Source: Escherichia coli (GTDB lineage Bacteria; Pseudomonadota; Gammaproteobacteria; Enterobacterales; Enterobacteriaceae). Taken from it: a DNA stretch of 64,000 nt. Position 1 is the first letter of the stretch. Each line of letters starts with the position of its first letter. The stretch lies in assembly GCF_003019035.1 (NCBI RefSeq), contig NZ_CP027447.1; one strand, 5' to 3'. A model generated the notes under the pieces. The model was not told the origin of the DNA and did no database searches. It saw only the letters and a program-made list of their open reading frames with translations. The position numbers and the translations under genes are program-made. Positions 1 through 27,811 of the stretch are shown one piece after another.

Positions 1-1
1 C

Positions 2-523
2 GTGTTTGAAACCGGCTACAACTGGTCGCTAACCGCCGACCGGCGGGCTTACCGCGTGGGCGATATCCTGACGGTGATCCTCGAAGAATCCACCCAGTCG
101 AGCAAACAGGCGAAAACCAACTTCGGCAAAAGCAACACCGTTGATATCGGCGCGCCGACCATTTTTGGGCACACCAAAGATAAGCTTTCCGGCTCTATCG
201 ACGCCAACCGCGACTTTGACGGCAGCGCCACTTCCCAGCAGCAGAACAGCCTGCGTGGGGAGATCACTGTTTCCGTCCATGCGGTGCAGCCTAACGGTAT
301 TCTCGAAATTCGCGGCGAGAAATGGCTCACCCTCAACCAGGGCGATGAGTACATCCGCTTAAGCGGCCTGGTACGCGCCGACGACATCCAGAACGACAAC
401 TCGGTTTCCTCTCAGCGGATCGCCGATGCCCGCATCTCCTATGCCGGACGCGGCGCGTTAAGCGACGCCAACGCCGCAGGCTGGTTGACGCGGCTGTTTT
501 ACCATCCTCTGTTCCCGATTTAA
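2..523 (+). CDS. lfgH: Flagellar L-ring protein FlgH, lateral (Flag-2) paralogue; 5' end likely outside window
   Basis: ORF begins at window edge; FlgH-like C-terminal region; followed by flgI/J/K/L-like genes in canonical order. Confidence 0.75.
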
Positions 524-537
524 TGCCGGAGAGTGCA

Positions 538-1638
538 ATGCAAAACTGGATAAAGGCCGCAGCGATCGCTGTAAGTCTGACGCTGCCCGGCGTGGCGCTG
601 GCGCAATCGCTGGAGTCGCTGGTCAACGTACAAGGTGTGCGTGAAAACCAACTGGTCGGCTACAGCCTGGTGGTCGGCCTTGACGGCACGGGTGATAAAA
701 ACCAGGTCAAATTTACCAACCAGACCATCACCAATATGTTGCGCCAGTTTGGCGTGCAACTGCCGAATAAAATCGACCCGAAAGTGAAAAACGTCGCCGC
801 GGTAGCGGTGAGCGCCACGCTGCCGCCGATGTACTCGCGCGGGCAGACCATCGATGTCACTGTTTCGTCGATTGGCGATGCTAAAAGTATTCGTGGCGGC
901 ACTTTGTTGCTGACCCAGTTGCACGGCGCGGATGGCGAAGTTTATGCGCTGGCGCAGGGCAGCGTGGTGGTGGGCGGGATGAATGCCACCGGGGCCAGCG
1001 GTTCGAGCGTAACGGTTAATACGCCAACCGCCGGGTTAATTCCTAACGGCGCAACGGTAGAGCGCGAGATCCCCAGCGATTTTCAGATGGGCGACACTAT
1101 CACCCTCAACCTGAAACGTCCGTCGTTTAAAGATGCCAACAATATTGCGGCGGCGATTAACGCCTCGTTTGGCGGCATTGCTACTGCGCAGAGCTCTACC
1201 AACGTCAGCGTGCGCGCGCCCACCAGCCCCGGCGCGCGGGTGGCATTTATGTCGCAACTGGATGATGTACAGGTGCAGGCAGAGAAAATCCGCGCCCGTG
1301 TGGTGTTTAACTCGCGTACCGGCACGGTGGTGATGGGCGATGGCGTTGCGCTGCACGCGGCGGCGGTGTCGCACGGCAGTTTGACCGTCTCGATTAACGA
1401 AACCAGCAACGTCAGCCAGCCGAATGCCTTTGCGAGTGGGCGCACGACGGTAACGCCGCAGAGCAATATCGCGGTGAATCATGCCCGTCCGGGCGTGGTG
1501 AGTTTGCCGGAGTCGAGCAGCCTGAAAACGCTGGTCAATGCGTTGAACAGTTTGGGCGCGACGCCGGACGACATTATGTCGATTTTACAGGCGCTGCATG
1601 AGGCGGGCGCGCTGGATGCCGACCTGGAGGTGATCTGA
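538..1638 (+). CDS. lfgI: Flagellar P-ring protein FlgI (lateral)
   Basis: ORF-track 523..1638; signal-peptide-like N-terminus ([16 protein letters not shown]); GGAGAG RBS 5 nt before ATG at 538, whereas ATG at 523 overlaps lfgH stop without RBS. Confidence 0.85.
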
Positions 1639-1937
1639 TGAAAGTGAACGCCAGCGGCGGGATTGATGGCAGCGATGCGTTAATGGGGCCGAAGGTTCAG
1701 GCCAATGATATTAAGCAGGCCGCGGAGCAGTTTGAGGCGATTTTTTTACGCAACATGCTGAAAGAGATGCGTAAAACCAACGAGTTGTTCGATTCGAAAG
1801 ATAACCCATTTAACAGCGATTCGGTGCGCATGATGCAGGGGTTTTATGACGATGAGTTGTGTAACACCCTGGCGCAGCAGCACGGGATTGGGATTGCGGC
1901 GATGATTGTGAAGCAGTTGTCGCCGAAGGGGAAATGA
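1638..1937 (+). CDS. lfgJ: FlgJ-like rod-binding protein, short form without muramidase domain
   Basis: 99-aa ORF, GGAGGTGA RBS, start overlaps lfgI stop; FlgJ N-domain-like sequence. Confidence 0.7.
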   Translation: MKVNASGGIDGSDALMGPKVQANDIKQAAEQFEAIFLRNMLKEMRKTNELFDSKDNPFNSDSVRMMQGFYDDELCNTLAQQHGIGIAAMIVKQLSPKGK

Positions 1938-1948
1938 GGGGCGCGCTT

Positions 1949-2060
1949 TGCCCCTCACCCTAACCCTCTCCCCAAAGGGGCGAGGGGACCGATTGAGCGC
2001 GGAGGTGAATATGGCGCAGGTTTTCGCCCTCTCCCTGTGGGAGAGGGCCGGGGTGAGGGC
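1949..2060. repeat. GC-rich nested palindromic intergenic element
   Basis: cccctcaccctaaccctctcccc (1951-1973) is mirrored by ccctctccctgtgggagagggccggggtgaggg (2027-2059); perfect hairpin ccctctccc-tgt-gggagaggg; lies between lfgJ stop and lfgK start. Confidence 0.45.
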
Positions 2061-2142
2061 ATCAGCGCGCACCATTATCCACTTAAGAATCCCCATCTTC
2101 ACGCCGCTTTTAACCGGCACGATTTACCGGTAAGGATCCAAC

Positions 2143-3519
2143 ATGGACATGATTAACATCGGCTACAGCGGCGCATCAACCGCGCAGGTAGAGCTGAACG
2201 TCACGGCGCAAAACACCGCCAACGCCATGACCACGGGCTACACCCGTCAGGTGGCGGAGATCAGCACCATCGGCGCCAGCGGTGGTTCGCCGAACAGCGC
2301 CGGTAACGGCGTGCAGGTCGACAGCATTCGCCGCGTCTCTAACCAGTATCAGGTGAATCAGGTGTGGTATGCCGCCAGCGATTACGGCTATTACAGCACC
2401 CAGCAGGGGTATCTCACGCAACTGGAAGCGGTACTGAGCGACGATAACAGCAGCCTGAGCGGCGGCTTCGATAACTTCTTCGCCGCCCTTAACGAAGCGA
2501 CCACCAGCCCCGATGATTCCGCCCTGCGCGAACAGGTGATCAGCGAAGCCGGGGCGCTGTCGTTGCGTATCGACAACACGCTGGATTACATCGACTCGCA
2601 AAGCACGGAAATCATCAGCCAGCAGCAGGCGATGGTGTCGCAAATCAACACGCTCACCAGCGGTATCGCCAGCTATAACCAGCAAATCGCCCAGGCTGAA
2701 GCCAACGGTGATAATGCCTCCGCGCTGTATGACGCCCGTGACCAGATGGTGGAAGAGCTTAGCGGGATGATGGATGTGCAGGTCAATATCGACGACCAGG
2801 GCAACTACAACGTCACCCTGAAAAACGGTCAGCCGCTGGTGAGCGGGCAACAAAGCTCGACCATCGCGCTGGAAACCAACGCCGACGGTACGCCGACCAT
2901 GTCGCTGACGTTCGCTGGCACCACCTCGACGATGACTACCGACACCGGCGGTTCATTAGGCGCACTGTTTGATTATCAAAACGACGTGCTGACGCCGCTG
3001 ACCGACACCATCAACAGCATGGCGTCGCAGTTTGCCGATGCGGTCAACAATCAACTGGTGCAGGGCTACGATCTCAACGGTAACCCCGGCGAGCCGCTGT
3101 TTATTTACGATGCCAGCAATGCCGATGGCCCGCTGACCGTTAACCCGGATATCACCGCCGATGAACTGGCGTTCTCCAGTTCGCCGGATGAAAGCGGCAA
3201 CAGCGACAACCTCCAGGCGCTGATCAATATCTCCACCGAACCGCTGGAGATAGCCAACCTTGGCAGCGTGACGGTCGGGCAGGCGTGCTCGTCAATCATC
3301 AGCAATATCGGCATTTACAGTCAGCAAAATCAGACGGAAGTCGATGCCGCGTCCAATGTCTATTCCGCAGCGCAAAACCAGCAGAGTAGCGTCAGCGGCG
3401 TCAGCATGGACGAAGAAGCGGTGAACCTGATCACCTATCAACAAATTTATGAAGCTAATCTGAAAGTCATTTCCGCCGGGGCCGAGATTTTCGATTCGGT
3501 GCTGGAAATGTGCAGCTAA
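2143..3519 (+). CDS. lfgK: Flagellar hook-associated protein 1 FlgK (lateral)
   Basis: 458-aa ORF; FlgK-like conserved N- and C-terminal helical ends (C-terminus ...EEAVNLITYQQIYEANLKVISAGAEIFDSVL). Confidence 0.85.
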   Translation: MDMINIGYSGASTAQVELNVTAQNTANAMTTGYTRQVAEISTIGASGGSPNSAGNGVQVDSIRRVSNQYQVNQVWYAASDYGYYSTQQGYLTQLEAVLSDDNSSLSGGFDNFFAALNEATTSPDDSALREQVISEAGALSLRIDNTLDYIDSQSTEIISQQQAMVSQINTLTSGIASYNQQIAQAEANGDNASALYDARDQMVEELSGMMDVQVNIDDQGNYNVTLKNGQPLVSGQQSSTIALETNADGTPTMSLTFAGTTSTMTTDTGGSLGALFDYQNDVLTPLTDTINSMASQFADAVNNQLVQGYDLNGNPGEPLFIYDASNADGPLTVNPDITADELAFSSSPDESGNSDNLQALINISTEPLEIANLGSVTVGQACSSIISNIGIYSQQNQTEVDAASNVYSAAQNQQSSVSGVSMDEEAVNLITYQQIYEANLKVISAGAEIFDSVLEMCS

Positions 3520-3533
3520 GCGGGAGCGCGAAA

Positions 3534-4463
3534 ATGCGAGTAACCACCCAACAAACCTACGTCTCGATGACGCAAAGTTTTAATAATCTCTCCGGCTCTC
3601 TGGCGCATGTGGTCGAGCAGATGGCAACCGGCAAGGAAATTTTGCAGCCGTCGGATGACCCGATCGCCGCCACGCGTATCACCCAGTTGAACCGCCAGCA
3701 GTCGGCGATTGAGCAGTATCAAAGCAATATTGACTCTGCGTCGGCGGGGTTAAGCCAGCAGGAGTCGATTCTCGATGGCGTCAACAACAGCCTGCTGGCG
3801 GTGCGCGACGACCTGCTGGAAGCGGCGAACGGCACCAATACCGCTGATTCGCTCGCAAGCCTCGGGCAGGATATTCAGTCGCTCACCGAATCGATGGTGG
3901 CGGCGCTCAATTATCAGGACGAAGACGGGCATTACGTGTTTGGCGGTACCATCAACGATCAGCCGCCGATTGTGGCGGTGGACGATGATGGCGATGGCGT
4001 GACCGACAGCTATAGCTATCAGGGCAACAGCGACCACCGCCAGACCACGGTGTCGAACGGCGTGGAAGTGGATACCAACGTGGCGGCGAGCGATTTCTTC
4101 GGCAGCAATTTAGATGTGCTCAACACGCTCAATTCGCTCTCTCAGGAGTTGCAAGACCCAAACGTTGACCCGGCCGATCCGCAGGTGCAGAGCGATATTC
4201 AGAACGCCGTTGATGTGGTGGACACCGCTTCGGACGATCTCAACGCCTCGATTGCGTCGCTTGGCGAGACGCAGAACACCATGTCGATGCTGAGCGATGC
4301 GCAGACCGATATTTCTACCTCTAATGATGAGTTGATTGGTTCTTTACAGGATCTCGATTACGGCCCGGCGTCGATCACCTTTACCGGACTGGAAGTGGCA
4401 ATGGAAGCTACCCTCAAGACTTACTCGAAAGTGAGTGAGTTGAATTTATTCAGCGTTCTCTAA
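3534..4463 (+). CDS. lfgL: Flagellar hook-associated protein 3 FlgL (lateral)
   Basis: ORF-track 3510..4463; ATG at 3534 (MRVTTQQ...) is the likely start; flagellin-like N-terminus typical of FlgL. Confidence 0.8.
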   Translation: MRVTTQQTYVSMTQSFNNLSGSLAHVVEQMATGKEILQPSDDPIAATRITQLNRQQSAIEQYQSNIDSASAGLSQQESILDGVNNSLLAVRDDLLEAANGTNTADSLASLGQDIQSLTESMVAALNYQDEDGHYVFGGTINDQPPIVAVDDDGDGVTDSYSYQGNSDHRQTTVSNGVEVDTNVAASDFFGSNLDVLNTLNSLSQELQDPNVDPADPQVQSDIQNAVDVVDTASDDLNASIASLGETQNTMSMLSDAQTDISTSNDELIGSLQDLDYGPASITFTGLEVAMEATLKTYSKVSELNLFSVL

Positions 4464-4479
4464 CTCTTTCAGGAACCGT

Positions 4480-5457
4480 ATGCAGGTCGGACTTACTTCT
4501 TCGTCACTCACCACCGGCGGCGCGCATAGCGCTGCGGTATCGTCGTCAACCGTTGCGCCCACTCAGGCGGTGCGGCAAAAACTCCCGGCGACGGCGAGTG
4601 AATATCCGGCCTCGCCGCTGATTACCACTCGCCCGCAGCGTTACAGTGTGCAGCTTAACGATCAGCTCACCACGTTGCAGCAGGCGGATCACTATCTCGG
4701 GCAACTGGAACAGCAGTTGCTCGATTACCGTCACAGCCAGCGTAAGGGCGGGCAGGCGCAGAGTTCAGCGCTGATGCAGATGCTGGACAAACGCACCGCG
4801 CTTTCCGGCGGCGCGGTGGACCGCCAGTTGCAGCCAGTGTTGCAGGGGGAAGCGCGGGTGACTTTTCACTCGCCGGATCTGACGAATCTGGTACACAATC
4901 CCACGCCGGGAACGCGCATGTTCAGTGTCACTGGCGGGCGGCAGACCCAGCTTTCGGCGGTGATGCTGTCTGAGGATGACAGCGCCGCGCAGTATCAGAC
5001 GCGGCTGACCAACGCTCTGCGCCGCGTGGGTGTGCAACTGCATCAGCAAGCGGACGGCATCAGCTTCTCCACCACTGAAAAACAGTGGCCCCATATCGAG
5101 CGCACCTTAAGCGTGCGCACCGATGGCGATAAGTCGGCGTTTATGCCGCTGAAAACCTTTGCCGAACCGTCACAGGCGGACCGCTTAGCGCAAAGCCTGC
5201 AACAAGGCGGGGCGGGAATTTCTCAAATGCTGGAAAACATTAATCAGCAGCGCGCGCAAATGGCGGTGCAGCAGGAAAAAGCGCGGCAGTTGATCGACGG
5301 CATGTCCCGCTTCCCGCAAACGGAAAGCGCCGTGCAGGCGTCGGAAAATCTCGGCGGCGTGCTGGATAGCGCCAATCATAACTATCAAGTTTTATTGCAG
5401 GCGGTGAACGGTCAGGCACGGATTTCCAGCCAGACGGTGAGGAGTTTATTGGGGTAG
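4480..5457 (+). CDS. lafW: Hypothetical lateral-flagellar protein (LafW position)
   Basis: 325-aa ORF with AGGAA RBS; position between lfgL and lafZ; no recognisable domain. Confidence 0.5.
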   Translation: MQVGLTSSSLTTGGAHSAAVSSSTVAPTQAVRQKLPATASEYPASPLITTRPQRYSVQLNDQLTTLQQADHYLGQLEQQLLDYRHSQRKGGQAQSSALMQMLDKRTALSGGAVDRQLQPVLQGEARVTFHSPDLTNLVHNPTPGTRMFSVTGGRQTQLSAVMLSEDDSAAQYQTRLTNALRRVGVQLHQQADGISFSTTEKQWPHIERTLSVRTDGDKSAFMPLKTFAEPSQADRLAQSLQQGGAGISQMLENINQQRAQMAVQQEKARQLIDGMSRFPQTESAVQASENLGGVLDSANHNYQVLLQAVNGQARISSQTVRSLLG

Positions 5458-5547
5458 TGTTATTGAAAATCAATCAAATGAGGCTGTTGTAAAAAATCAT
5501 TTCAGTGCAGAATATGCTATAACTCTACGGGTTAAAAAAGGAATGAA

Positions 5548-5691
5548 ATGACCACTCTCAAGCAACTGATGGATAAGCAAAGCCCTGAAAGTCGTAGGCG
5601 AATAATAAAAAAAGCAGAACGAATCCGGCAAACTATCATTAATAAAAAGCTAGAGTTACCAATAACTAAAACTATCAGCAATTCCGATTGA
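5548..5691 (+). CDS. Possible small ORF (47 aa), hypothetical
   Basis: ATG at 5548 preceded by AAGGAA; reads MTTLKQLMDKQSPESRRRIIKKAERIRQTIINKKLELPITKTISNSD; below ORF-track size cutoff; AT-rich intergenic context. Confidence 0.2.
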   Translation: MTTLKQLMDKQSPESRRRIIKKAERIRQTIINKKLELPITKTISNSD

Positions 5692-5760
5692 TTTCATTCG
5701 GGATTTTCGTTGGCCGGATAAGACGCGTTTAGCGTCGCATCCGGCATATATTGGCACTCG

Positions 5761-6654
5761 TCAGCATTTCTGCACAGTATTTAACAACTTCTCTAAATTC
5801 TGATACATCGCGCGATTAATATCGCTGTTCTGCCAGCCTTCCACATTAAAAGTTAATTGCCAGCTACCATTGCACTGGTTGCGCAGAACAATATCACTTT
5901 CCAGTCGGTTACGAACATATTTATAATAAGTTGTCATTGTCATATTATGCGCTGACAATAAATTATCGAGTTTGTCTTTTCCTGGTTCGAGGGTTTGTGA
6001 CAGTAACGGTACGGAATTATTTTCCTTTCCAGAACTAAGATGAAATATTTTTATTCTTGGACTGTTAATTGACTCTTTTACCAGTTGCGGGGCGTCAGGT
6101 GTACTTTTCAAGTGTGAATACCCCACGGTCGAGCCAATAAATATAACAGCCGCGGTCAACGCTAACCCCATCAGTCCTTTATGTTTTTTTCTAACTGGTA
6201 CAGGCGGTGTTGTCGAAGATATCTCTTCTGACACAGTTTCCTGTACCTGGTCGGTAATCATCAGCTTTTCCGCAGGCGATAACTCCGGCAAAGACACATA
6301 CTCTTTATTGCACAAGTAACCTTTCTTCGGAATTGTTTTAATAATGTTCTGTTGTTTGCCATCATCGTCGATAGCAACGCGTAACGCATGGATCGCCGTC
6401 GGCAGGCTGTTACCGCCGACTATGCGGTTCTTCCATACTTCGGCACATAAATAAGATCGCGATAAAACCACATCGGCATTTTTTGCTAATGTTTCCAGCA
6501 AAATAAAATGGTATTCGCCGAGACGACGTGTTTCACCCGTTTCGCAATGTATTAAGGCATTAAGCGACGGGTCCATCCGCCAGTTGTTGATAATAATACT
6601 CATAGTTGAGTTTACCTTAGCAAGGGATAAATGTTTCCTGATAGTGCTTTGCAT
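5761..6654 (-). CDS. lafZ: Transmembrane transcriptional regulator (ToxR/CadC-like winged-helix N-domain plus one TM helix), LafZ position
   Basis: 297-aa ORF; OmpR/PhoB-type winged-helix-like N-terminus; hydrophobic segment LMGLALTAAVIFIGSTVGY mid-protein; AT-rich gene. Confidence 0.55.
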   Translation of the reverse strand: MQSTIRKHLSLAKVNSTMSIIINNWRMDPSLNALIHCETGETRRLGEYHFILLETLAKNADVVLSRSYLCAEVWKNRIVGGNSLPTAIHALRVAIDDDGKQQNIIKTIPKKGYLCNKEYVSLPELSPAEKLMITDQVQETVSEEISSTTPPVPVRKKHKGLMGLALTAAVIFIGSTVGYSHLKSTPDAPQLVKESINSPRIKIFHLSSGKENNSVPLLSQTLEPGKDKLDNLLSAHNMTMTTYYKYVRNRLESDIVLRNQCNGSWQLTFNVEGWQNSDINRAMYQNLEKLLNTVQKC

Positions 6655-7089
6655 AAAGCACAGTCTTATACGTCCCTGAGAAGATGATTTTTCTGCGTGA
6701 TAATTAATATTTTATGGTAATAGGATTATTCTTAATCACTATATGGCGTGGAAATGTAACGAAATGACAGGACAGGTACAATAGCCAAATGTGTACTATT
6801 TGCAACGCAATGTAAATTTTGGCATCAGTACATTGAGAACAAAACGCGATAATTGATGACAATCTTAACTATATCAAGCATTTGATAAAGACATATTTTG
6901 ATACCTGGCCATGTGGCAGATATTGCTAATAATCTTTTTATCTGAATTTAAACTCTGCTTTTTTTTAGCTAAAAGTGGCATCGGATAATACGTGGCGAAA
7001 AAATTTTAACGGCGATTTTAAGTTTGCTCCTGAGGTGTCGTTTTTACAGGGTATCGAAACGAAAACGATTAATCCCAAGGAGCAGTATC

Positions 7090-8004
7090 ATGTTATCTAT
7101 TAACACCAATAACGCCTCAATGGCCGCCGTTAATGCAATCAGCAAAAGCAGCTCTTCTCTGTCTACATCTATGGAACGCCTGGCAACGGGTAACCGGATT
7201 AACTCTTCTGCCGATGACGCAGCGGGCAAACAAATTGCTAACCGTCTGACAGCACAGTCCAGCGGTATGGGTGTGGCGCTGAGCAACATCAATGATGCCA
7301 CCGCGATGCTGCAAACCGCCGACAGCATGTTCGACGAAATGTCTGATGTGCTGGGTCGTATGAAAGACCTGTCAACTCAGGCAGCGAACGGCACCTACAG
7401 CGACGACGATCTACAGGCGATGCAGGACGAATACGACGAACTGGGTCAGCAGATGTCTGACATGCTGCAAAACACCACTTACGGCGGCACCAACCTGTTC
7501 GGTGTTTCCGGTACCAGCAACACCGGTACTGACGGTCTGTTCCAGAGCGCAGTAACTTTCCAGGTGGGCGCGGAATCTTCCGACACCATGACCGTGAATA
7601 TTTCAAGCCAGCTGAATACCCTGGTGACGGATCTTTCTGCTATCAGCAACTCCTTCAGTGCGGATCAGGCTGACACCACTGGCACCGCAGGCGTTTCTGG
7701 CGGTACTGAGCTGACTGCGTCTGGCTCGGCTAACCAGATGATTACCAGCATTTCGACCGCGATGGATGATGTTTCGCAGATCCAATCCAAGCTGGGTGCG
7801 TCTATTAACCGTCTGAACGACACTGCCAACAACCTGACCAGCATGCAGGACAACACCGAAGTCGCTATCGGTAACATTATGGATACCGACTACGCGACGG
7901 AAGCGTCCAACATGACTAAACAGCAGGTGCTGATGCAGACCGGCATCACCATGCTGAAACAGTCCAACAGCATGTCCAGCATGGTTTCCAGCCTGCTGCA
8001 GTAA
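7090..8004 (+). CDS. lafA: Lateral flagellin
   Basis: ORF-track 7024..8004; ATG at 7090 preceded by AAGGAG RBS; flagellin N-terminus MLSINTNNASMAAVNAI and C-terminus ...MSSMVSSLLQ. Confidence 0.85.
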   Translation: MLSINTNNASMAAVNAISKSSSSLSTSMERLATGNRINSSADDAAGKQIANRLTAQSSGMGVALSNINDATAMLQTADSMFDEMSDVLGRMKDLSTQAANGTYSDDDLQAMQDEYDELGQQMSDMLQNTTYGGTNLFGVSGTSNTGTDGLFQSAVTFQVGAESSDTMTVNISSQLNTLVTDLSAISNSFSADQADTTGTAGVSGGTELTASGSANQMITSISTAMDDVSQIQSKLGASINRLNDTANNLTSMQDNTEVAIGNIMDTDYATEASNMTKQQVLMQTGITMLKQSNSMSSMVSSLLQ

Positions 8005-8014
8005 TGGCGGACTT

Positions 8015-8045
<31 letters not shown>

Positions 8046-8052
8046 ACGAACA

Positions 8053-8080
8053 ACACCGCCTGCGGGCGGTGTTGTGCTTT
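8053..8080 (+). terminator. Rho-independent terminator after lafA
   Basis: acaccgcc-tgcg-ggcggtgt hairpin followed by T-rich tract (tgctttct). Confidence 0.5.
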
Positions 8081-8152
8081 CTGCGGCAGGCGTATTTCCG
8101 CCAGACCGGAAATGGCTTTTCCGCCTGTTTTTCAATCTATTGATTCTTCACA

Positions 8153-8183
8153 TAAAAAATATTGGCACGCCTTTTGCCAATAA
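8153..8183 (+). promoter_or_regulatory. Candidate sigma-28-type promoter upstream of lafB
   Basis: GCCAATAA (8176-8183) is one mismatch from the sigma-28 -10 consensus GCCGATAA; upstream TAAA at 8153 but spacing is longer than consensus. Confidence 0.25.
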
Positions 8184-8209
8184 CCTGACATCGTTATCCG
8201 GAGTCATCA

Positions 8210-9526
8210 ATGATCAACCCAAGAACCATTGCGCAAGAAATCGCCTATGCGGATGTTGCCACTCAGGCGGCAAACTTGCAGGAGAAGCAGAGCGAGCTGG
8301 ATGCTGAAAGCAGCGGCCTGGACTCGCTCAGCTCAGCGTTGAGCGATTTTCAGAGCGCCGTTGACGCGCTGAACAGCGATACTGACGGCCCGGTGACGTT
8401 TGCCGCCACCAGCAATAATGACTCGGCGACCGTTTCCGCTAACTCGCAGGCACAGGCGGGAAGCTACTCGTTTTTCGTTGAGCAACTGGCGCAGGGGCAG
8501 CAAACCACGTTCAGTATGGGCGACGACGCCTTTTCCGCCACCGGCACTTTTGAACTGACGATGGGCGACAGCACCATGGATATTGATCTGTCGGCGGCGG
8601 ATCAAAACGGTGACGGCGACGGTTTTATCGACGCCAGTGAACTGGTGAATGCGATTAACGACTCTGATGACAATCCGGGCGTGTCGGCGGCACTGGTAAA
8701 AACCGACGGCACCACCACCATTATGCTCACCTCCGATAGCACCGGGGCGCAGAGCGCATTTTCGGTGAGCGTAACGGGGCATGACACCAGCAACGATAGC
8801 GCCAGCGCGCCCGTTGCCACGGATGTTTCCTCCGCTCAGGACGCGATTATTCATCTCGGCAGTGCCACAGGGCCTGAGATCACCAACAGCAGCAATACGT
8901 TTGATGATGTGATCCCCGGTGTCACCATGACTTTCACCGAAGTCAGCGATTCTGACAGCGACCTCACTACCTTTAACATTAGCGAAGATTCCAGCGCCAG
9001 CCAGGAGAAAGTGCAGACCTTTGTCGATGCCTATAACACCCTGATCGATACGGTTGATTCGCTAACCACCCACGGTGATGACAGTACCAGCGCCGGGGTA
9101 TTTGCAGGCGACGCAGGACTCAGTTCACTGGCGAACCAGCTCGATGATATCGCCCATGCCAGCTACAACGGGGTATCGATTGTTGACTATGGCATCACGC
9201 TTGATTCTCACGGCCACTTACAGATTGACTCCGACCAGTTCAACGACGAAATGGCGAAAAATCCTGACGGTCTGACCTCTATTTTCGTTGGCGACAACAG
9301 CATGGTGGCACAGATGGACGACCTGATTAACACCTACACGGACTCCAGCAACGGCATCATCACCCTGCGCCAGCAGAACATTGACGATCAGATGAGCAAA
9401 ATTCAGGACGAAGGCGATCAGCTTACTGATACCTATAACGCCAACTACGACCGTTATCTCGAGGAGTACACCAACACGCTGGTCGAGGTGTACACCATGA
9501 AAGCCAGCATGGCGGCATTCGCGTAA
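8210..9526 (+). CDS. lafB: Flagellar filament cap protein FliD-like (lateral HAP2)
   Basis: 438-aa ORF; FliD-like N- and C-terminal regions; follows the flagellin gene. Confidence 0.8.
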   Translation: MINPRTIAQEIAYADVATQAANLQEKQSELDAESSGLDSLSSALSDFQSAVDALNSDTDGPVTFAATSNNDSATVSANSQAQAGSYSFFVEQLAQGQQTTFSMGDDAFSATGTFELTMGDSTMDIDLSAADQNGDGDGFIDASELVNAINDSDDNPGVSAALVKTDGTTTIMLTSDSTGAQSAFSVSVTGHDTSNDSASAPVATDVSSAQDAIIHLGSATGPEITNSSNTFDDVIPGVTMTFTEVSDSDSDLTTFNISEDSSASQEKVQTFVDAYNTLIDTVDSLTTHGDDSTSAGVFAGDAGLSSLANQLDDIAHASYNGVSIVDYGITLDSHGHLQIDSDQFNDEMAKNPDGLTSIFVGDNSMVAQMDDLINTYTDSSNGIITLRQQNIDDQMSKIQDEGDQLTDTYNANYDRYLEEYTNTLVEVYTMKASMAAFA

Positions 9527-9548
9527 CTCAGAAGGAATATCCCTAAAG

Positions 9549-9941
9549 ATGTACCAAGTACAGGACGGCTATTCGCAATATAAAGAGATCGATCTCGCGG
9601 CGCGTACTGCGGCGGCATCGCCTCTGGAACTGGTGCTGGTGCTGTTTTCTGGTCTGATGGACGAGCTGGAACGCGCCAAAAGCCATATTGAAGGGCGGCG
9701 TTTCGAGAAGAAAGCCCAGAGCATCAATAAATGCATCGACATTCTCAATGCGCTCACCAGTTCGCTGGAGTTTGAAACTGGCGGCGAGCTGGTGGTCAAC
9801 CTTTCGCGCCTCTATGACCACTGTGTGTATCGCTTGTATGAGGCTAGCGGCGAACTGTCGGCAGAGAAAATCGATGAAGTGATGCTGATCTTAAGCAACC
9901 TGCGTGAAGGCTGGGAAGGGCTTTCGGGCAAGCTGGGTTAA
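9549..9941 (+). CDS. lafC: Flagellar export chaperone FliS-like
   Basis: 130-aa ORF; FliS-like sequence; canonical position after fliD-like gene. Confidence 0.75.
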   Translation: MYQVQDGYSQYKEIDLAARTAAASPLELVLVLFSGLMDELERAKSHIEGRRFEKKAQSINKCIDILNALTSSLEFETGGELVVNLSRLYDHCVYRLYEASGELSAEKIDEVMLILSNLREGWEGLSGKLG

Positions 9942-9945
9942 GACG

Positions 9946-10257
9946 ATGGAAAAACAACGCAGGCAACTTTTCGCGCTGGTTGAAGCGATGAACGAAGCCC
10001 TCGACAAGCAACGCTGGCGACGCCTTCCGGCACTGCATCAGCAGTTGATGCGCCAGTTTCACGATTACGTGGCGGCGGAAACCGACGCGGCGCAGTTGTG
10101 TGCGGTGAAGGCGCAGCTGTACGGCGCGTTTAATGCCCTGATTAAACGGCGCGAGCAGCGTGCAGAAGTGTTGACGGCGCGTATGGAACAGCATCAGCGG
10201 CATCAGGAAGGCGTACTGGCCTACTCAATTGTTAATTTACTTTCGGAGAAGTCATGA
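9946..10257 (+). CDS. lafD: FliT-like chaperone / LafD
   Basis: ORF-track 9904..10257; ATG at 9946 follows lafC stop; small helical protein at FliT position. Confidence 0.45.
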   Translation: MEKQRRQLFALVEAMNEALDKQRWRRLPALHQQLMRQFHDYVAAETDAAQLCAVKAQLYGAFNALIKRREQRAEVLTARMEQHQRHQEGVLAYSIVNLLSEKS

Positions 10258-11312
10258 ATCCGGCATTGCTTGCCACGCTCGGAACACTTGCGGAAACGGC
10301 GTCGCTGAAAGCGGATATTTTACCGCCGGTGAGTAGTGAAAACGCGCCCGCGTTTACCCTGCCGAAAATGGCGGTCGCGGCGGTGGCGGAGCGCGTTCAT
10401 AGCGCAAAAACCAGTCAGCAACAGGCGACGCGCCCGCAGGAGAACGATCCGGTGGCGATGCAGGCGCTAATGGCGCTGTTACTTCCGCAACCTGCCGCGC
10501 CGCATCAGGTCACGCCGCAGCCGCGAAACGTCGCAACATCGCCGGTTATCCAGCAATTGACGAAAGCGGTGGTGCAAAACGCGCCGCAACGCCCGACGCA
10601 GCAGCAGGAATTCACGCCGTTGCCGCCGCAGTTGCAGGAGCTGATCAGTCAGTTGCCGCAGGCGAAACCCGAACAGCAGGCCAGACTGGCAATTTACGCC
10701 AGTGAAGATTTACATGCCATTGCGCCGACGCAGCCGCGCGTCTCAACACAGCCAGCTCGCCCGAAACCTGAACTAACCCGTGTGAACGCGCGCCCGCAGG
10801 TCGAGCGTAAAACGGAAAAAGTGCCGGACAGCGAACCGGTTATTGCGCGTGCGGTGTTGCAGGTTAAGACGCCGGATCTGGTCAGCGAACATCAGGAGAT
10901 TGTCGCCAAACCAGCCACGCTTTCGATGGACGAACTGGGCGAAAAACTGACGACGCTGTTGAAAGATCAGATCCACTTTCAGCTCAACAAACAACAGCAG
11001 ATCTCCACCATCCGTCTCGATCCACCGTCGCTTGGCAAGCTCGAGATCGCCGTACAACTCGACAACGGCAAACTGATGGTGCACATCGGCGCGAACCAAA
11101 GTGAAGTTTGCCGCGCGTTACAGCAGTTTAGCGACGATCTCCGCCAGCATCTGACGGCGCAAAATTTTATGGAGGTGAACGTACAGGTTTCCTCCGAAGG
11201 GCAGTCGCAGCAACAACAGTCGGGCCATCAGCAGGAAGAGGTGAGTGCCGCCTTACAGCTTGATGATGCGCCTCAATTTCAACAGAACGAATCCGTTTTG
11301 ATCAAAGTGTAA
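10254..11312 (+). CDS. lafE: Hook-length control protein FliK-like
   Basis: 352-aa ORF; Pro/Gln-rich low-complexity central region and conserved C-terminal domain typical of FliK. Confidence 0.6.
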   Translation: MNPALLATLGTLAETASLKADILPPVSSENAPAFTLPKMAVAAVAERVHSAKTSQQQATRPQENDPVAMQALMALLLPQPAAPHQVTPQPRNVATSPVIQQLTKAVVQNAPQRPTQQQEFTPLPPQLQELISQLPQAKPEQQARLAIYASEDLHAIAPTQPRVSTQPARPKPELTRVNARPQVERKTEKVPDSEPVIARAVLQVKTPDLVSEHQEIVAKPATLSMDELGEKLTTLLKDQIHFQLNKQQQISTIRLDPPSLGKLEIAVQLDNGKLMVHIGANQSEVCRALQQFSDDLRQHLTAQNFMEVNVQVSSEGQSQQQQSGHQQEEVSAALQLDDAPQFQQNESVLIKV

Positions 11313-11319
11313 AGGCAAT

Positions 11320-11787
11320 ATGAAGAAAATCGTGGTGGCGGGCGTGGTCAGCGCCGTTCTGGCGTTGGTGGTCGGCGCTGGAGCTGGATGGGGTGTCTGG
11401 CATCATTATGCCGGAAAAGGAAAACCGACTGCCGTTGCGCGGACGGAAGCGGTAGAAACCCTGGATGAAAGCAAAAGCGTGTTTGTGACGCTGCCGGAAA
11501 CCATTGTCACGCTGCATGACAACAACGGCGCGGACCATTATTTGTCGGCGGAATTAGTGATGGTGGTTGCCAGTGACAAAGAAGCGGAAAAAATAAAGCA
11601 TCAGGAGCCGTTGTATCAAAGTATTGCGGTTGAATGCCTGACGGAAATGAAATTTGAAGATTTGCGGGGCATGAAAATATCTGCCATCCGCAAACTGATT
11701 TCGGATGCGTTAAAGAAAGATCTTCAGCGTCGCAAAATGAGCGCACCGTATAAGGATTTGCTGGTGAAAAAAGTGGTCTTCCAGTAA
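11320..11787 (+). CDS. lafF: Flagellar basal-body-associated protein FliL-like
   Basis: 155-aa ORF with one N-terminal TM helix (IVVAGVVSAVLALVVGAGAGW); FliL-like topology. Confidence 0.6.
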   Translation: MKKIVVAGVVSAVLALVVGAGAGWGVWHHYAGKGKPTAVARTEAVETLDESKSVFVTLPETIVTLHDNNGADHYLSAELVMVVASDKEAEKIKHQEPLYQSIAVECLTEMKFEDLRGMKISAIRKLISDALKKDLQRRKMSAPYKDLLVKKVVFQ

Positions 11788-11806
11788 TCACCAGGCGGAT
11801 ATAAAC

Positions 11807-12526
11807 ATGCTACAGGACGTATTATTCGAGTCAGAAGAATTTGCTGCCGCGCCGGTATTAACCCCGCAGCAGGAGAGCCACTACTTGCAGGCCTATTTAC
11901 CACTGGTGCGTAAAGTGGTGCGGCAACTTGCCCCGCAGTGTAATTGCATTATTGATCGTCAGGATATGGAACAAACGGCGTTAATGGGGCTGCTTAATGC
12001 CATTCGCCGCTACGGGCTGCCGGACGAAGGTTTTGCGGGCTATGCCGTGCACCGTATTCGCGGCGCGATCCTGGATGAGCTGCGCGCTCTCGACTGGCGA
12101 CCGCGCCAGCTGCGACAGAAATATCATCAGATGAAAGACCTGATTCGCGAAACGCGTAAAAAACTGGGGCACGAACCGGAGTGGCAGGAGCTGGCTGAGG
12201 AAGGGATCTCGCATGAAGATTATCTCGAATATCAGCAACTGGAAGGGGCGGAAACGCTCGCCAGCCTGGACGAACTGCTGAACGGCGAAGGGCCAGGCAT
12301 TCCGCTTGCTGGCAGAGACCTGGAAGATCAGTTTGTCACGCAGAAAATGCTGCAACACGCGCTTTCACAATTAAGCGAAAAAGAGCAACTGATCCTCTCC
12401 ATGTATTACCAGCATGAGATGAATCTCAAAGAGATTGCGCTGGTATTAGGGCTAACCGAGGCCCGAATTTGTCAACTGAATAAACAGATCGCGCAGAAAA
12501 TTCGTGATTTTGTCTATCCGAATTAA
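11807..12526 (+). CDS. lafS: Flagellar sigma factor, sigma-28 (FliA-like)
   Basis: 239-aa ORF; sigma-70 family regions 2 and 4 recognisable; C-terminal HTH ...LKEIALVLGLTEARICQLNKQ. Confidence 0.85.
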   Translation: MLQDVLFESEEFAAAPVLTPQQESHYLQAYLPLVRKVVRQLAPQCNCIIDRQDMEQTALMGLLNAIRRYGLPDEGFAGYAVHRIRGAILDELRALDWRPRQLRQKYHQMKDLIRETRKKLGHEPEWQELAEEGISHEDYLEYQQLEGAETLASLDELLNGEGPGIPLAGRDLEDQFVTQKMLQHALSQLSEKEQLILSMYYQHEMNLKEIALVLGLTEARICQLNKQIAQKIRDFVYPN

Positions 12527-12538
12527 AGTGAAGAAATC

Positions 12539-13402
12539 ATGCAAAAAATATTAGGTTTACTGGTGGTGCTCGGCTGCGTATTTGGCGGTTATTTTGAAGC
12601 GGGCGGCCAATTAGTGGCTATCTGGCAGCCTGCAGAGATAGTTATTATTTTAGGTGCTGGTTTCGGGGCGATGATTATTGGGAACCCGAAACATGTGCTG
12701 AAAGAGATTGCCCATCAAATTAAAGGCGTGATCAGTAAAAAACAGCTCGGGCCGGAGTTTCAGCGCCAGCTATTAATGTGCCTGTATGAGTTGCTTGAAA
12801 TGGTACAAAACGGCGGTCTGCGGATGTTGGATCAGCATATTGAGCAGCCGGAAGAGAGTACCGTTTTCCAGAAATACCCGCTGGTGTTAACCCAGAAGCG
12901 GCTGGTGACTTTTATTGCCGATAACTTTCGCCTGATGGCGATGGGTAAAATCGACGCCCATGAACTGGAAGGCATTCTCGATCAGGAGCTGGACACCGCT
13001 GAAGAGTCGCTGTTAACGCCGTCACGCTCGCTGCAACGGACCGCCGAAGCGATGCCGGGATTTGGTATTTGCGCGGCAGTGCTGGGCATCATCATCACCA
13101 TGCAGTCAATTGACGGTTCTATCGCCCTGATTGGCCTGAAAGTGGCGGCAGCGCTGGTGGGGACATTTTTAGGCGTGTTTATTTGCTACTGCCTGATGGA
13201 CCCGCTCGCCAACGCCATGGAACAGCAGGCGCGGGCGGAACATTCGCTGCTGGAGTGTGTGCGTACCGTGCTGGTGGCCCAGGCGGGCGGCAAACCGACG
13301 CTGCTGGCGGTGGACGCCGGGCGTAAGCTGCTGCATCTGGCGTCCAAACCGACCTTCGCCAACCTCGATGCATGGGTGAATGCGATGCTGGAGCAAGAAT
13401 AA
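12539..13402 (+). CDS. lafT: Flagellar stator protein MotA-like
   Basis: 287-aa ORF; four TM segments and cytoplasmic loop typical of MotA/PomA. Confidence 0.85.
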   Translation: MQKILGLLVVLGCVFGGYFEAGGQLVAIWQPAEIVIILGAGFGAMIIGNPKHVLKEIAHQIKGVISKKQLGPEFQRQLLMCLYELLEMVQNGGLRMLDQHIEQPEESTVFQKYPLVLTQKRLVTFIADNFRLMAMGKIDAHELEGILDQELDTAEESLLTPSRSLQRTAEAMPGFGICAAVLGIIITMQSIDGSIALIGLKVAAALVGTFLGVFICYCLMDPLANAMEQQARAEHSLLECVRTVLVAQAGGKPTLLAVDAGRKLLHLASKPTFANLDAWVNAMLEQE

Positions 13403-13404
13403 GC

Positions 13405-14328
13405 ATGAGAAAGACGGGCAACCGCCGCGAGCGTGGGGCAAAAACCACCATCGTCCGGCGGCAGATCAAAAAGAATCATGCCGGGCACCACGGCGGGGCG
13501 TGGAAGGTAGCGTTCGCCGACTTTACCCTGGCGATGATGGCGCTATTTATGACGCTGTGGATTGTCAATAGCGTCAGTAAATCCGAGCGTGAAAGCATTA
13601 TCGCCGCGCTGCACGGGCAGTCGATTTTTAACGGTGGTGGGCTGTCGCCGTTAAATAAAATCAGCCCGTCTCATCCGTCAAAACCTGCCACCGTGGCGGT
13701 GCCGGAAGAGACGGAGAAAAAAGCGCGCGACGTCAACGAGAAAACGGCGCTGCTGAAGAAGAAATCCGCCACCGAGCTTGGTGAGCTGGCAACCAGCATC
13801 AACACCATTGCCCGTGATGCGCATATGGAAGCGAATCTGGAGATGGAGATTGTCCCGCAGGGATTACGCGTGCTGATTAAAGACGACCAGAATCGCAATA
13901 TGTTCGAACGCGGCAGCGCGCAGATTATGCCGTTCTTTAAAACGCTGCTGGTGGAGCTCGCGCCAGTGTTCGACTCGCTCGATAACAAAATTATTATTAC
14001 CGGGCATACCGATGCGATGGCCTACAAAAACAATATCTACAACAACTGGAACCTTTCGGGTGACCGCGCGCTTTCGGCTCGTCGGGTGCTGGAAGAGGCA
14101 GGAATGCCGGAAGATAAAGTGATGCAGGTGAGCGCAATGGCGGACCAGATGCTGCTGGACGCGAAAAATCCGCAAAGCGCGGGCAACCGGCGCATTGAGA
14201 TTATGGTGCTGACTAAAAGCGCGTCCGATACGCTGTATCAATACTTTGGTCAGCATGGGGATAAAGTGGTGCAGCCGCTGGTGCAAAAGCTGGATAAGCA
14301 GCAGGTGCTTTCGCAGCGAACGCGTTAA
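13405..14328 (+). CDS. lafU: Flagellar stator protein MotB-like (OmpA-family peptidoglycan-binding C-domain)
   Basis: ORF-track 13372..14328; ATG at 13405; single TM (FADFTLAMMALFMTLWIV); C-terminal OmpA-like motif (TGHTDAMAY...NWNLSGDRALSARRVL). Confidence 0.85.
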   Translation: MRKTGNRRERGAKTTIVRRQIKKNHAGHHGGAWKVAFADFTLAMMALFMTLWIVNSVSKSERESIIAALHGQSIFNGGGLSPLNKISPSHPSKPATVAVPEETEKKARDVNEKTALLKKKSATELGELATSINTIARDAHMEANLEMEIVPQGLRVLIKDDQNRNMFERGSAQIMPFFKTLLVELAPVFDSLDNKIIITGHTDAMAYKNNIYNNWNLSGDRALSARRVLEEAGMPEDKVMQVSAMADQMLLDAKNPQSAGNRRIEIMVLTKSASDTLYQYFGQHGDKVVQPLVQKLDKQQVLSQRTR

Positions 14329-14398
14329 ATGCTGAATCTTTACGCATTTCTCAAACCCTGAAATCACTGTATACTTTACCAGTGTTGAGAGGTGAGCA

Positions 14399-15454
14399 AT
14401 GCGTAAAATCATTCATGTGGATATGGACTGCTTTTTCGCAGCGGTGGAGATGCGCGACAATCCTGCCCTGCGCGATATCCCTATTGCTATTGGCGGCAGC
14501 CGCGAACGTCGGGGGGTGATCAGCACCGCCAATTATCCCGCGCGTAAATTTGGCGTACGTAGCGCTATGCCGACAGGGATGGCACTCAAATTATGCCCAC
14601 ATCTCACGCTGCTTCCAGGGCGCTTTGACGCCTACAAAGAAGCCTCAAATCATATCCGCGAAATTTTCTCGCGCTATACCTCGCGCATTGAACCGTTATC
14701 ACTGGATGAAGCCTATCTCGACGTCACCGATAGTGTGCATTGCCACGGTTCTGCGACCCTCATCGCCAAGGAAATCCGTCAGACGATCTTTAACGAGCTG
14801 CAACTGACGGCATCTGCGGGCGTTGCGCCGGTAAAGTTTCTCGCCAAAATTGCTTCCGACATGAATAAACCCAACGGTCAGTTTGTGATTACGCCGGCAG
14901 AAGTTCCGGCATTTCTGCAAACCTTACCGCTGGCAAAAATTCCCGGCGTCGGCAAAGTCTCGGCGGCAAAACTGGAAGCGATGGGGCTGCGGACCTGCGG
15001 TGATGTGCAAAAGTGTGATCTGGTGACTCTGCTCAAACGTTTTGGCAAATTTGGCCGCATTTTGTGGGAGCGTAGTCAGGGGATTGACGAGCGCGACGTT
15101 AACAGTGAACGGTTGCGAAAATCCGTCGGCGTGGAACGCACGATGGCGGAAGATATTCATCACTGGTCTGAATGTGAAGCGATTATCGAGCGGCTGTATC
15201 CTGAACTTGAACGCCGTCTGGCAAAGGTAAAACCTGATTTACTGATTGCTCGCCAGGGGGTGAAATTAAAGTTTGATGATTTTCAGCAAACCACTCAGGA
15301 GCACGTCTGGCCGCGGCTGAATAAAGCTGATCTAATCGCCACCGCGCGTAAAACCTGGGATGAACGTCGCGGCGGGCGCGGTGTGCGTCTGGTGGGGCTG
15401 CATGTGACGTTACTTGACCCTCAAATGGAAAGACAACTGGTGCTGGGATTATGA
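14399..15454 (+). CDS. dinB: DNA polymerase IV
   Basis: 351-aa ORF matching E. coli DinB essentially along its length ([20 protein letters not shown]...). Confidence 0.95.
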
Positions 15455-15903
15455 ATAACATACAAATAAGAAACTATCAGCCTTGCGATTTTCAGCAACT
15501 ATGCGCTATTTTCATTAGAGCAGTTACGATGACCGCCAGTCAGCACTATTCTCCACAGCAAATTGCCGCCTGGGCGCAGATTGACGAATCTCGCTGGAAA
15601 GATAAACTCGCGAAATCACAAGTGCGGGTTGCAGTCATTAATGCACAACCGGTTGGTTTTATTTCCCGCATTGAACATTATATCGATATGTTATTTGTTG
15701 ACCCGGAATACACCCGCCGTGGGGTTGCCAGCGCTTTGTTAAAACCTTTGATTAAGTCTGAATCCGAACTTACGGTGGACGCCAGCATAACCGCAAAGCC
15801 CTTTTTTGAACGTTATGGTTTTCAGACAGTTAAGCAGCAGCGCGTTGAATGCCGGGGAGCGTGGTTTATTAATTTTTATATGCGTTATAAACCGCAACAT
15901 TAA
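15451..15903 (+). CDS. yafP: GNAT-family N-acetyltransferase YafP
   Basis: 150-aa ORF; start overlaps dinB stop (ATGA); GNAT-like sequence. Confidence 0.8.
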
Positions 15904-16081
15904 ATCCAGCTTGCAATGAAAATAACGCCCGCCTAGTATGTGTGCGTTTTCTTATTCCACAAACTGCAAGGAGGTAAATCATGACAAATCCTTTATCAAT
16001 GACTCTTTGCAGACCTTTCCAGGATTAATTCTTTTTTTCTTGCCCTGGATTCGTCTGCCATTTCCTGATTTTTATTCATAA

Positions 16082-17233
16082 ATGGAATGGTACATGGGCA
16101 AATATATTCGTCCCTTATCCGATGCGGTATTTACCATCGCATCTGATGACCTGTGGATCGAGAGTTTAGCGATCCAACAATTACACACCACGGCAAATTT
16201 ACCCAACATGCAACGCGTAGTAGGGATGCCAGATTTACATCCCGGACGCGGCTATCCGATTGGCGCAGCGTTCTTCTCCGTAGGCCGTTTTTACCCGGCA
16301 CTGGTCGGCAATGATATCGGCTGCGGTATGGCGCTATGGCAAACAGATATTTTCGCGCGCAAATACAACGCCGATAAGTTTGAAAAGCGATTATCTGCGC
16401 TGGATGACGTTGCTGAAGAAAGCTGGCTGGAGGAAAACCTGCCGTCAGCGTTAGCACAGCATCCGTGGCGCAGCTCGCTGGGTTCCATCGGTGGCGGAAA
16501 CCACTTCGCAGAACTGCAACAAGTTGATCAAATTATCGACGCTGAACTGTTTGCACTGACAGGTCTGGATGCGCAGCATCTGCAACTGCTGGTTCATAGC
16601 GGCTCGAGGGGGCTGGGGCAGTCTATTTTACAGCGGCATATTGCCTCGTTTTCGCATCATGGTTTGCCTGAAGGCAGTGACGACGCGCTACGGTATATTG
16701 CGGAACATGACGATGCGCTGGCGTTTGCGCGTATTAATCGCCAGATGATCGCTTTGCGCATAATGCAACAGGTTAAGGCCACCGGAAGTCCTGTTCTGGA
16801 TGTGGCGCATAACTTTGTTAGCGCCTGTCAAATCGGCGATCAACAGGGCTGGTTGCATCGTAAAGGTGCCACGCCGGATGACAACGGTCTGGTGATTATT
16901 CCCGGTTCACGCGGTGATTACTCCTGGCTGGTTAAACCTGTTGCGAACGAAAAAACACTCCACTCGCTGGCGCATGGGGCAGGGCGTAAATGGGGGCGCA
17001 CCGAGTGTAAAGGGCGTCTGGCAGCGAAATACACGGCGACGCAACTCTCGCGTACTGAACTTGGCAGTCGGGTAATTTGTCGCGATAAACAACTCATCTT
17101 TGAAGAAGCGCCACAAGCCTATAAATCGGCTGAAAGCGTGGTGCAATGTCTGGTGCAGGCCGGTTTAATTATTCCTGTCGCGCGGCTGCGTCCGGTGCTA
17201 ACGCTCAAAAACAATGGAGGGAAAAAAGGATGA
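16082..17233 (+). CDS. RtcB-family RNA ligase (PrfH-associated paralogue)
   Basis: 383-aa ORF; RtcB-like metal-binding motifs (GNDIGCG, GGGNHF); stop overlaps prfH start (ATGA). Confidence 0.8.
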
Positions 17234-17844
17234 TCTTGCTACAACTCTCCTCAGCTCAGGGGCCGGAAGAATGTTGCCTGGCAGTGAAAAAGGCGCTGGA
17301 CAGGTTGATTAAAGAAGCTACCCGACAAGACGTCGCGGTAACGGTGCTGGAAACAGAAACGGGTCGCTACTCTGACACACTGCGTTCGGCGCTGATTTCT
17401 CTGGATGGCGATAACGCATGGGCTCTAAGCGAAAGCTGGTGTGGCACTATCCAGTGGATTTGTCCGAGTCCGTATCGGCCTCATCATGGGCGCAAAAACT
17501 GGTTTCTGGGCATTGGGCGTTTTACCGCTGATGAGCAGGAACAATCCGACGCGATCCGTTATGAGACGCTGCGTTCGTCGGGGCCGGGCGGTCAACATGT
17601 CAATAAAACCGACTCGGCGGTACGCGCCACGCATCTGGCATCCGGTATTAGCGTGAAGGTTCAGTCAGAGCGCAGTCAGCATGCTAACAAACGGCTGGCG
17701 CGATTACTGATTGCCTGGAAGCTGGAACAACAGCAACAGGAAAATAGCGCGGCGCTGAAATCGCAGCGGCGAATGTTCCATCATCAAATTGAACGTGGCA
17801 ATCCGCGACGGATATTTACCGGGATGGCTTTTGTTGCTGTGTAA
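17230..17844 (+). CDS. prfH: Peptide chain release factor homologue PrfH
   Basis: ORF-track 17146..17844; in-frame ATG at 17230; contains GGQ motif ([17 protein letters not shown]) of class-I release factors. Confidence 0.85.
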
Positions 17845-26557: not shown

Positions 26558-26633
26558 GCCGATATAGCTCAGTTGGTAGAGCAGCGCATTCGTAATGCGA
26601 AGGTCGTAGGTTCGACTCCTATTATCGGCACCA
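26558..26633 (+). tRNA. thrW: tRNA-Thr (CGT anticodon)
   Basis: 76-nt sequence GCCGATATAGCTCAGTTGGTAGAGCAGCGCATTCGTAATGCGAAGGTCGTAGGTTCGACTCCTATTATCGGCACCA with cloverleaf pairing and CCA end; downstream of proA. Confidence 0.9.
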
Positions 26634-26647
26634 TTAAAATCAATAAG

Positions 26648-27811
26648 TTACACATCATTAGTACCTTCCTTATTTTTTGACTGGGACAAATTTGGGACCG
26701 ATGGGTTCAGGATCGAGTCTATTTGCCGTGCGTGTTCGGTAAGGTGATTAGGTGCAAGGTGAGCATATCGACGAACCATTTCGATAGACTCCCAGCCTCC
26801 CATTTCCTGTAACACTGACAACGGGACTCCGGCTTGAACCAGCCAACTTGCCCAGGTGTGTCTCAAGTCGTGAAATCTGAAATCATCAATACCAGCCCGT
26901 CTCAGCGCCGCTTTCCAGGCTGTGTTTGCGTCATACCGCATCTTCCTTACTGTTGGCGCTTTCGTTCCGTCTGGTTTGGTACAGCTTTCCTTGTACACAA
27001 ATACCCAACGGTGATGATTCCCGATTTGTTTTTTCAATACGCGACATGCAGTATCATTCAGCGCAACGCCAATTGCGCGGTTTGATTTACTCTCTTCCGG
27101 GTTTATCCATGCCACCCGGCGCTGCATATCTATTTGTTGCCATTCAAGGTTGATGATGTTCGAGCGTCTTAAGCCTGTTGCCAGTGCAAATTCAACAACA
27201 GACTTTAATGGCTCCGGACATTCATCAATCAGCCTTTGTGCTTCATGGGGTTCCAGCCAGCGGATCCGTTTATTCTTTGGTTGAGGCACTTTAATAATTG
27301 GTGCCTTATCCAGCATTTTCCATTCACGCTCTGCGGCTCTTAGTAGGGCCTTTATAAATGAAAGATGCGTAGCCTTCGTTGCAACGGACGCTGGTTTTGG
27401 CGTGTATTCTGGAACAGGTTTCCCTTTTTTTCTGCATGCTTCTGCCCTGAGTTTCCAGTTTTCCTCATGACGCCGGTTCGTCATTTTCTGCATTGCTGAA
27501 TAAATTTTTGATTCAGTAATGTCTCTTAGTTGCATTCCTGCGAAATGTTGAAGCCAGAATCCGATCCGGCTTTTGTCATCGTCCAGTGATTTTTTATGTG
27601 CTTTCTCTTCAAGCCACCTGACACACGCTTCCTCGAACGTTATATCAGGTATTTCACCAAGTTTGCTGACCCGCCATGCTTCGGCCTTTAGCTTGTCATG
27701 GAGTTCTGTCGCCTGCCTTTTGTCCTTTGTTCCAAGAGACTGTTTAAATCTTTTACCGTTCGGCAATGTGAAACTGGCGTACCATATTTCACCTCTGCGG
27801 AAGAGTGACAT
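26648..27811 (-). CDS. int: Tyrosine integrase (P22-like)
   Basis: 387-aa ORF closely resembling P22 Int from memory ([41 protein letters not shown]...); C-terminal catalytic motifs HDLRHTWAS and VRRYAHL. Confidence 0.9.

Follow-up and report, generated by a model that had tools for sequence, protein, structure and literature searches.

In Escherichia coli K-12, the gene for DNA polymerase IV (Pol IV) heads the operon dinB-yafN-yafO-yafP, according to the citations of McKenzie 2003 and Singletary 2009 in PMC3105422 and PMC7167474, and both LexA binding and damage-inducible dinB transcription have been shown there (PMC3105422). A shorter form of the operon has also been described. Gutierrez et al., 2011 found dinB and yafP fused through an ATGA overlap in 40% of sequenced strains and in 50% of ECOR strains and, working in the two-gene strain CFT073, showed by experiment that YafP synthesis from the two-gene operon is SOS-inducible (PMC3105422). 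Mitomycin C induced a YafP-YFP fusion in that strain, as did stationary phase, and YafP activity was deleterious without Pol IV (PMC3105422). The published accounts differ on how the two forms are related. Gutierrez et al., 2011 took the four-gene state as ancestral, since E. fergusonii has it, with yafNO deleted at least three times (PMC3105422), whereas Fraikin et al., 2020 regard yafNO as an insertion and the two-gene form as the undisturbed bicistronic operon (PMC7167474). From the description in the latter paper, relA-mazE-mazF-mazG and relA-mazG form a comparable pair, in which a type II toxin-antitoxin cassette is likewise present or absent between two cistrons; like dinB-yafP, relA-mazG is a housekeeping or stress bicistron that is functional when uninterrupted, although the locus and the genes are different (PMC7167474).

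The operon analyzed here is of the two-gene form. It lies in a window of E. coli chromosome, by which we mean the whole 64-kb stretch of DNA that was examined. The dinB gene (14399-15454, plus strand) is intact and encodes a Y-family DNA polymerase IV of 351 amino acids, which scored 547 bits against the NCBIfam DNA polymerase IV equivalog NF002677 (cutoff 256) over residues 1-345 of 351. The yafP gene (15451-15903, plus strand) is also intact and encodes a GNAT-family N-acetyltransferase of 150 amino acids, scoring 325 bits against the YafP-type GNAT equivalog NF007338 (cutoff 146) over residues 1-150 of 150; the YafP homologues that we found carry Pfam Acetyltransf_10, Acetyltransf_7 and Acetyltransf_1 domains. 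The original prediction, made from the letters of this DNA, had stated that the dinB stop overlaps the yafP start and that no gene intervenes. Both points were borne out by the open reading frame list and the raw sequence, which place the yafP ATG at 15451-15453 and the dinB TGA at 15452-15454, sharing the ATGA at 15451-15454 with zero genes between them. The absence of the toxin-antitoxin module, which had been claimed as well, holds for the entire window: searches for yafN and yafO returned no blastn matches and only chance-level tblastn matches (best E = 0.035 over 18 residues), and the two coding sequences that make up the YafN-YafO type II module were thus not found in the 64 kb.

The annotation of MG1655 gives dinB (b0231), yafN, yafO and yafP (b0234), in that order, in agreement with the K-12 arrangement given in the original prediction. 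Aligned with K-12, the window shows a single gap of exactly 759 bp and is 96.2% identical elsewhere. What the window does not have is the yafN-yafO cassette including its 51-bp upstream spacer, and the indel is cleanly bounded by the sequence ATTATGA. In K-12 this heptamer flanks the cassette as a 7-bp direct repeat, with one copy at the end of dinB (GGG-ATTATGA-TGTATAC) and the other at the start of yafP (TTTAT-ATTATGA-ATAAC). Only one copy occurs in the window, at 15448-15454 on the plus strand, and it contains both the dinB TGA and the yafP ATG. In K-12, yafP starts 9 nt past yafO; in the window it would be coupled to dinB. The operons are otherwise very similar: there are 2 substitutions in DinB and 6 in YafP (including G12C), neither protein changes in length, and both operons occupy the same chromosomal site, between lafU and the rtcB/prfH-pepD region.

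The upstream region supports the description of the locus as an SOS operon, which was likewise part of the original prediction. CTGTAT-N7-CAG is matched once in the 64 kb, by CTGTATACTTTACCAG at 14367-14382 on the plus strand. This CTG-N10-CAG box, of the kind expected in the LexA regulon, overlaps the -10-like hexamer TATACT of a putative sigma-70-like dinB promoter (TTCTCA-16 nt-TATACT, 14348-14375, plus strand) that was picked out by a consensus scan. The lafU-dinB spacer, LexA box and putative promoter included, is identical to that of K-12 at 70 of 70 bp. A simple terminator scan detected no plus-strand terminator between or downstream of dinB and yafP. Taken together with the intact reading frames, we are highly confident that the window holds an ordinary dinB-yafP bicistron, intact and under LexA repression, which is the yafNO-less allele of about half of E. 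coli.

In such an operon, transcription would start from the dinB promoter, where the LexA box covers the -10 element, and DNA damage would derepress dinB and yafP on one mRNA, judging by the sequence identity with K-12. YafP would most likely be translated by termination-reinitiation at the AUGA overlap and so be coupled to DinB synthesis, because its AUG overlaps the dinB UGA and is preceded by a weak Shine-Dalgarno-like match. In the window, the anti-Shine-Dalgarno pairing predicted ahead of yafP amounts to -4.0 kcal/mol, as against +0.4 kcal/mol in K-12 and -7.1 kcal/mol for dinB, and, as sequence features, the 4-nt overlap and this weak pairing fit a translationally coupled pair. Coupling of this kind would tie YafP output to Pol IV output, and Pol IV bypasses the lesions that YafP activity makes more cytotoxic (Gutierrez et al., 2011, PMC3105422). 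That study invoked 'translational frameshifting' for YafP synthesis (PMC3105422). Both mechanisms are hypothetical; an ATGA overlap is more conventionally read as coupling.

The arrangement itself is already known, as both Gutierrez et al., 2011 and Fraikin et al., 2020 describe the two-gene operon; it is a published, high-frequency and ordinary allele. Using a 120-bp junction probe, with contiguous matches counted at 80% or higher coverage of the 120 bp, we detected the fused junction in 2,569 of 5,426 complete E. coli genomes (47%). The K-12 yafNO cassette was present in 2,847 of the same genomes (52%), and the fused and yafNO classes together make up the 5,416 complete genomes in which the dinB-yafP locus is present. 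While every fact in the original prediction holds, the allele is therefore less noteworthy than that prediction had rated it, given its frequency and prior publication, and it carries little weight as a discovery. The two-gene operons of CFT073, UTI89 and Nissle 1917 (PMC3105422, PMC7167474) share with the window the genes, their order, the ATGA overlap and the lengths of dinB and yafP. The differences are in allelic sequence only, the 1.7-kb allele of the window being 95-98% identical to most others, and in the surroundings, since Nissle has a deletion of the Flag-2 (lateral-flagellar) cluster and the window operon adjoins an intact one.

We also considered whether a misassembly or sequencing error might have removed the cassette from this assembly. 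There is practically no chance of this, as an identical junction occurs in the 2,569 complete RefSeq genomes, Nissle 1917 among them, the strain SCU-301 matches the window at 100% identity over 1,701 bp, and both reading frames are intact. SCU-301, which has a Flag-2 deletion, is the only one of 5,424 matching records to reach 99% or higher identity with window positions 14300-16000. For positions 1-25000, the best match among complete genomes is EC476, a four-gene strain, at 98.2% identity. Since the best 25-kb match is four-gene and the 1.7-kb identity is found only with SCU-301, the region is mosaic and the dinB-yafP allele of the window is rare, with no effect on the identity of the allele. 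Several SNPs occur only in the window and SCU-301, and one of them gives the G12C substitution in YafP.

Our next question was which layout is the older one. Outgroups were gathered by a YafP protein search followed by an exact-protein look-up of the encoding contigs; one homologue, P0008, gave no upstream context, as it sits at a contig end. E. marmotae has the same dinB-yafP ATGA overlap as the window, and there the two genes are, also as in the window, preceded by intact lateral-flagellar genes and followed by rtcB-prfH. Outside Escherichia, dinB ends in TAA and is followed closely by the yafP ATG, with a gap of 5 nt in Citrobacter amalonaticus and in one further enteric contig (L027), and of 2 nt in Kluyvera sichuanensis and in two others (L028 and L029). 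Because these outgroup genera place dinB directly against yafP, the two-gene layout is the ancestral one at the level of the family, and yafNO of K-12 a derived, inserted cassette. This qualifies one part of the original prediction. In describing the module as absent, 'leaving a two-gene SOS operon', it had the layout right, but the implied loss sits less well with a two-gene arrangement that is older in the family and into which yafNO was inserted.

Within the genus, the cassette is not confined to typical E. coli. A strict degenerate DNA pattern for a YafP peptide, run on genome contigs, returned two Escherichia loci only. One of them (L004) belongs to a divergent 'E. coli' lineage and has the complete set of dinB, yafN, yafO and yafP. 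The other, from Escherichia sp. E1V33 (L005), represents a third form of the operon, dinB-yafN-yafP, on the minus strand (dinB 3135-2080, yafN 2028-1735, yafP 1703-1251), in which ~379 bp are gone, and with them nearly all of yafO, so that the antitoxin gene is orphaned. E. fergusonii has been reported as four-gene (PMC3105422). As these two loci and E. fergusonii carry the cassette, its insertion is old, with the cassette present early in Escherichia, and a later precise loss within E. coli is possible. The family-level ancestry is thus compatible with the window allele having once held yafNO and then possibly lost it precisely.

The history of the allele within E. coli was examined in 19 loci, ten two-gene and nine four-gene, a small sample in which recombination confounds simple trees. 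We found no SNP that consistently distinguishes the two classes in these 19 loci, not even at sites up to 40 bp from the junction, so a single-origin haplotype is not demonstrable. The two-gene strains fall into at least five haplotypes inside 40 bp of the junction, and for several of their alleles the nearest relative on one side is four-gene, not two-gene. For instance, the dinB of 90-3040 (two-gene) and that of 126 (four-gene) have 5 differences, and the yafP of Nissle is 2 differences from that of the four-gene strain N1, while its dinB is at least 21 from every sampled four-gene strain. The window itself has a dinB nearest to that of EC476 (13 differences) and a yafP nearest to those of DG351-2 and 042, and across the 19 loci the similarity of the flanks often switches at the junction.

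In the nine four-gene strains, synonymous divergence averages 0.156 in dinB, 0.089 in yafN, 0.027 in yafO and 0.082 in yafP. Because the values for the cassette genes are lower than that for dinB, the cassette, and yafO especially, coalesces more recently than dinB. The dinB value in these nine strains (L002, L003 and L014-L020) is itself high, with a maximum of 0.246, and the flanks show 3-4.5% nucleotide diversity, near the distance to the Escherichia lineages L004 and L005, which are classified separately; this suggests old or introgressed alleles at the dinB locus. Some four-gene strains have a damaged toxin gene: in 042 (L020, 5634-6032) and in DG351-2 (L014, 4003-4401), yafO has an internal stop and bears a pseudogene annotation, and in MINF_8D (H41) it is interrupted by IS1. 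In all three, yafN is intact, so the cassette decays toxin-first in some four-gene strains.

For the strain studied here, the data fit 'never occupied' and 'secondarily lost' at roughly even odds. If the site was never occupied, the operon is the ancestral two-gene form, both alleles have coexisted in Escherichia, and homologous recombination has moved them among strains. We give this account an even chance. All of the non-E. coli outgroups examined (E. marmotae, Citrobacter, Kluyvera and the enteric contigs) are two-gene, the cassette genes yafO and yafN are less divergent at synonymous sites than dinB, and the flanks of the window and of Nissle are mosaics whose breakpoints fall close to the junction, all of which speaks for this account; Fraikin et al., 2020 also hold the insertion view (PMC7167474). 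However, the cassette of the divergent Escherichia lineage L004 and the yafN of L005 show divergence roughly in proportion to their flanks, and the E. fergusonii cassette (PMC3105422) argues that it was present early in the genus. The complete lack of fixed SNPs is also unexpected for long-separated classes, unless gene conversion has been heavy, and these patterns come from a sample of 19 E. coli loci only.

The other account, which follows the model of Gutierrez et al., 2011, is that the 759-bp cassette was lost by recombination or slippage between the short repeats, restoring the ATGA, on several independent occasions. We place its probability a little under one half. A deletion between the two ATTATGA copies of K-12 yields the window junction exactly, and repeated events would explain why two-gene alleles stand on at least five haplotypes near the junction, some of them, as with 90-3040 and 126, closer to four-gene relatives. 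The cassette is visibly decaying by other routes, through the yafO stops in 042 and DG351-2, the IS1 in MINF_8D and the yafO deletion in E1V33, and at least three losses had been inferred by Gutierrez et al., 2011 (PMC3105422). On the other hand, that model was originally based on a single four-gene outgroup, E. fergusonii, whereas the deeper outgroups are two-gene; exchange of the indel through homologous recombination accounts equally well for the polyphyly; and precise excision is so far a proposed event.

A more specific form of the never-occupied account is that the window operon is a never-interrupted descendant of the enterobacterial bicistron, and that the K-12 form arose when a promoter-bearing yafNO cassette inserted once and duplicated its 7-bp target, ATTATGA. 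This falls somewhat short of an even chance. If true, it would reverse the published polarity for E. coli, with its ancestral four-gene state and three or more deletions, and the locus would be a clean case of a toxin-antitoxin cassette acting as a mini-insertion with target-site duplication. The insertion view is already that of Fraikin et al., 2020, and what we add to it is limited to the outgroup evidence for a two-gene layout older than the insertion, a flanking repeat of 7 bp rather than the 4 nt reported, and the synonymous diversity of the cassette, lower than that of dinB; the count over 5,426 genomes is a further addition. The outgroups favor an inserted yafNO cassette over degeneration of the operon to two genes, and K-12 should not be taken as the reference state for the dinB operon. 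Strains such as this one would express yafP coupled directly to dinB, without the toxin-antitoxin module or its internal promoter, and for that reason conclusions drawn in K-12 on yafNO and the SOS response do not transfer to them.

Upstream of the operon, the Flag-2 cluster is intact at window positions 1-14328, with flgH-L, lafA and fliD/S/K/L, and its last genes encode a FliA-like sigma factor (11807-12526), a motA-like product (12539-13402) and a full-length lafU (about 13404-14328). In K-12 and in most sampled strains, Flag-2 is reduced to lfhA and lafU remnants, and the first 25 kb of the window are covered at 80% or more in one place by 1,268 of the 5,426 genomes. Downstream of yafP, the order is rtcB, prfH, pepD, gpt, frsA, crl, phoE and proBA. 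The rtcB-family RNA ligase gene (16094-17233; NF007153, 642 bits) is intact, as is the gene for the release-factor homologue prfH (17230-17844; TIGR03072, 330 bits), and these two also share a 4-nt overlap. Their K-12 counterparts are the pseudogenes ykfJ and prfH, and in several sampled strains rtcB and prfH are truncated or interrupted by insertion sequences (ISEc20, IS2). Farther on, a tRNA-Thr(CGT) gene (26558-26633) is immediately followed by a minus-strand ORF of 387 amino acids (26648-27811), placed as an integrase gene would be. Beyond this ORF lies a prophage, for which matching genomes name terminase, portal, capsid, tail sheath, tape measure and baseplate genes, and only 21 genomes cover positions 25001-50000 at 80% or more in one place.
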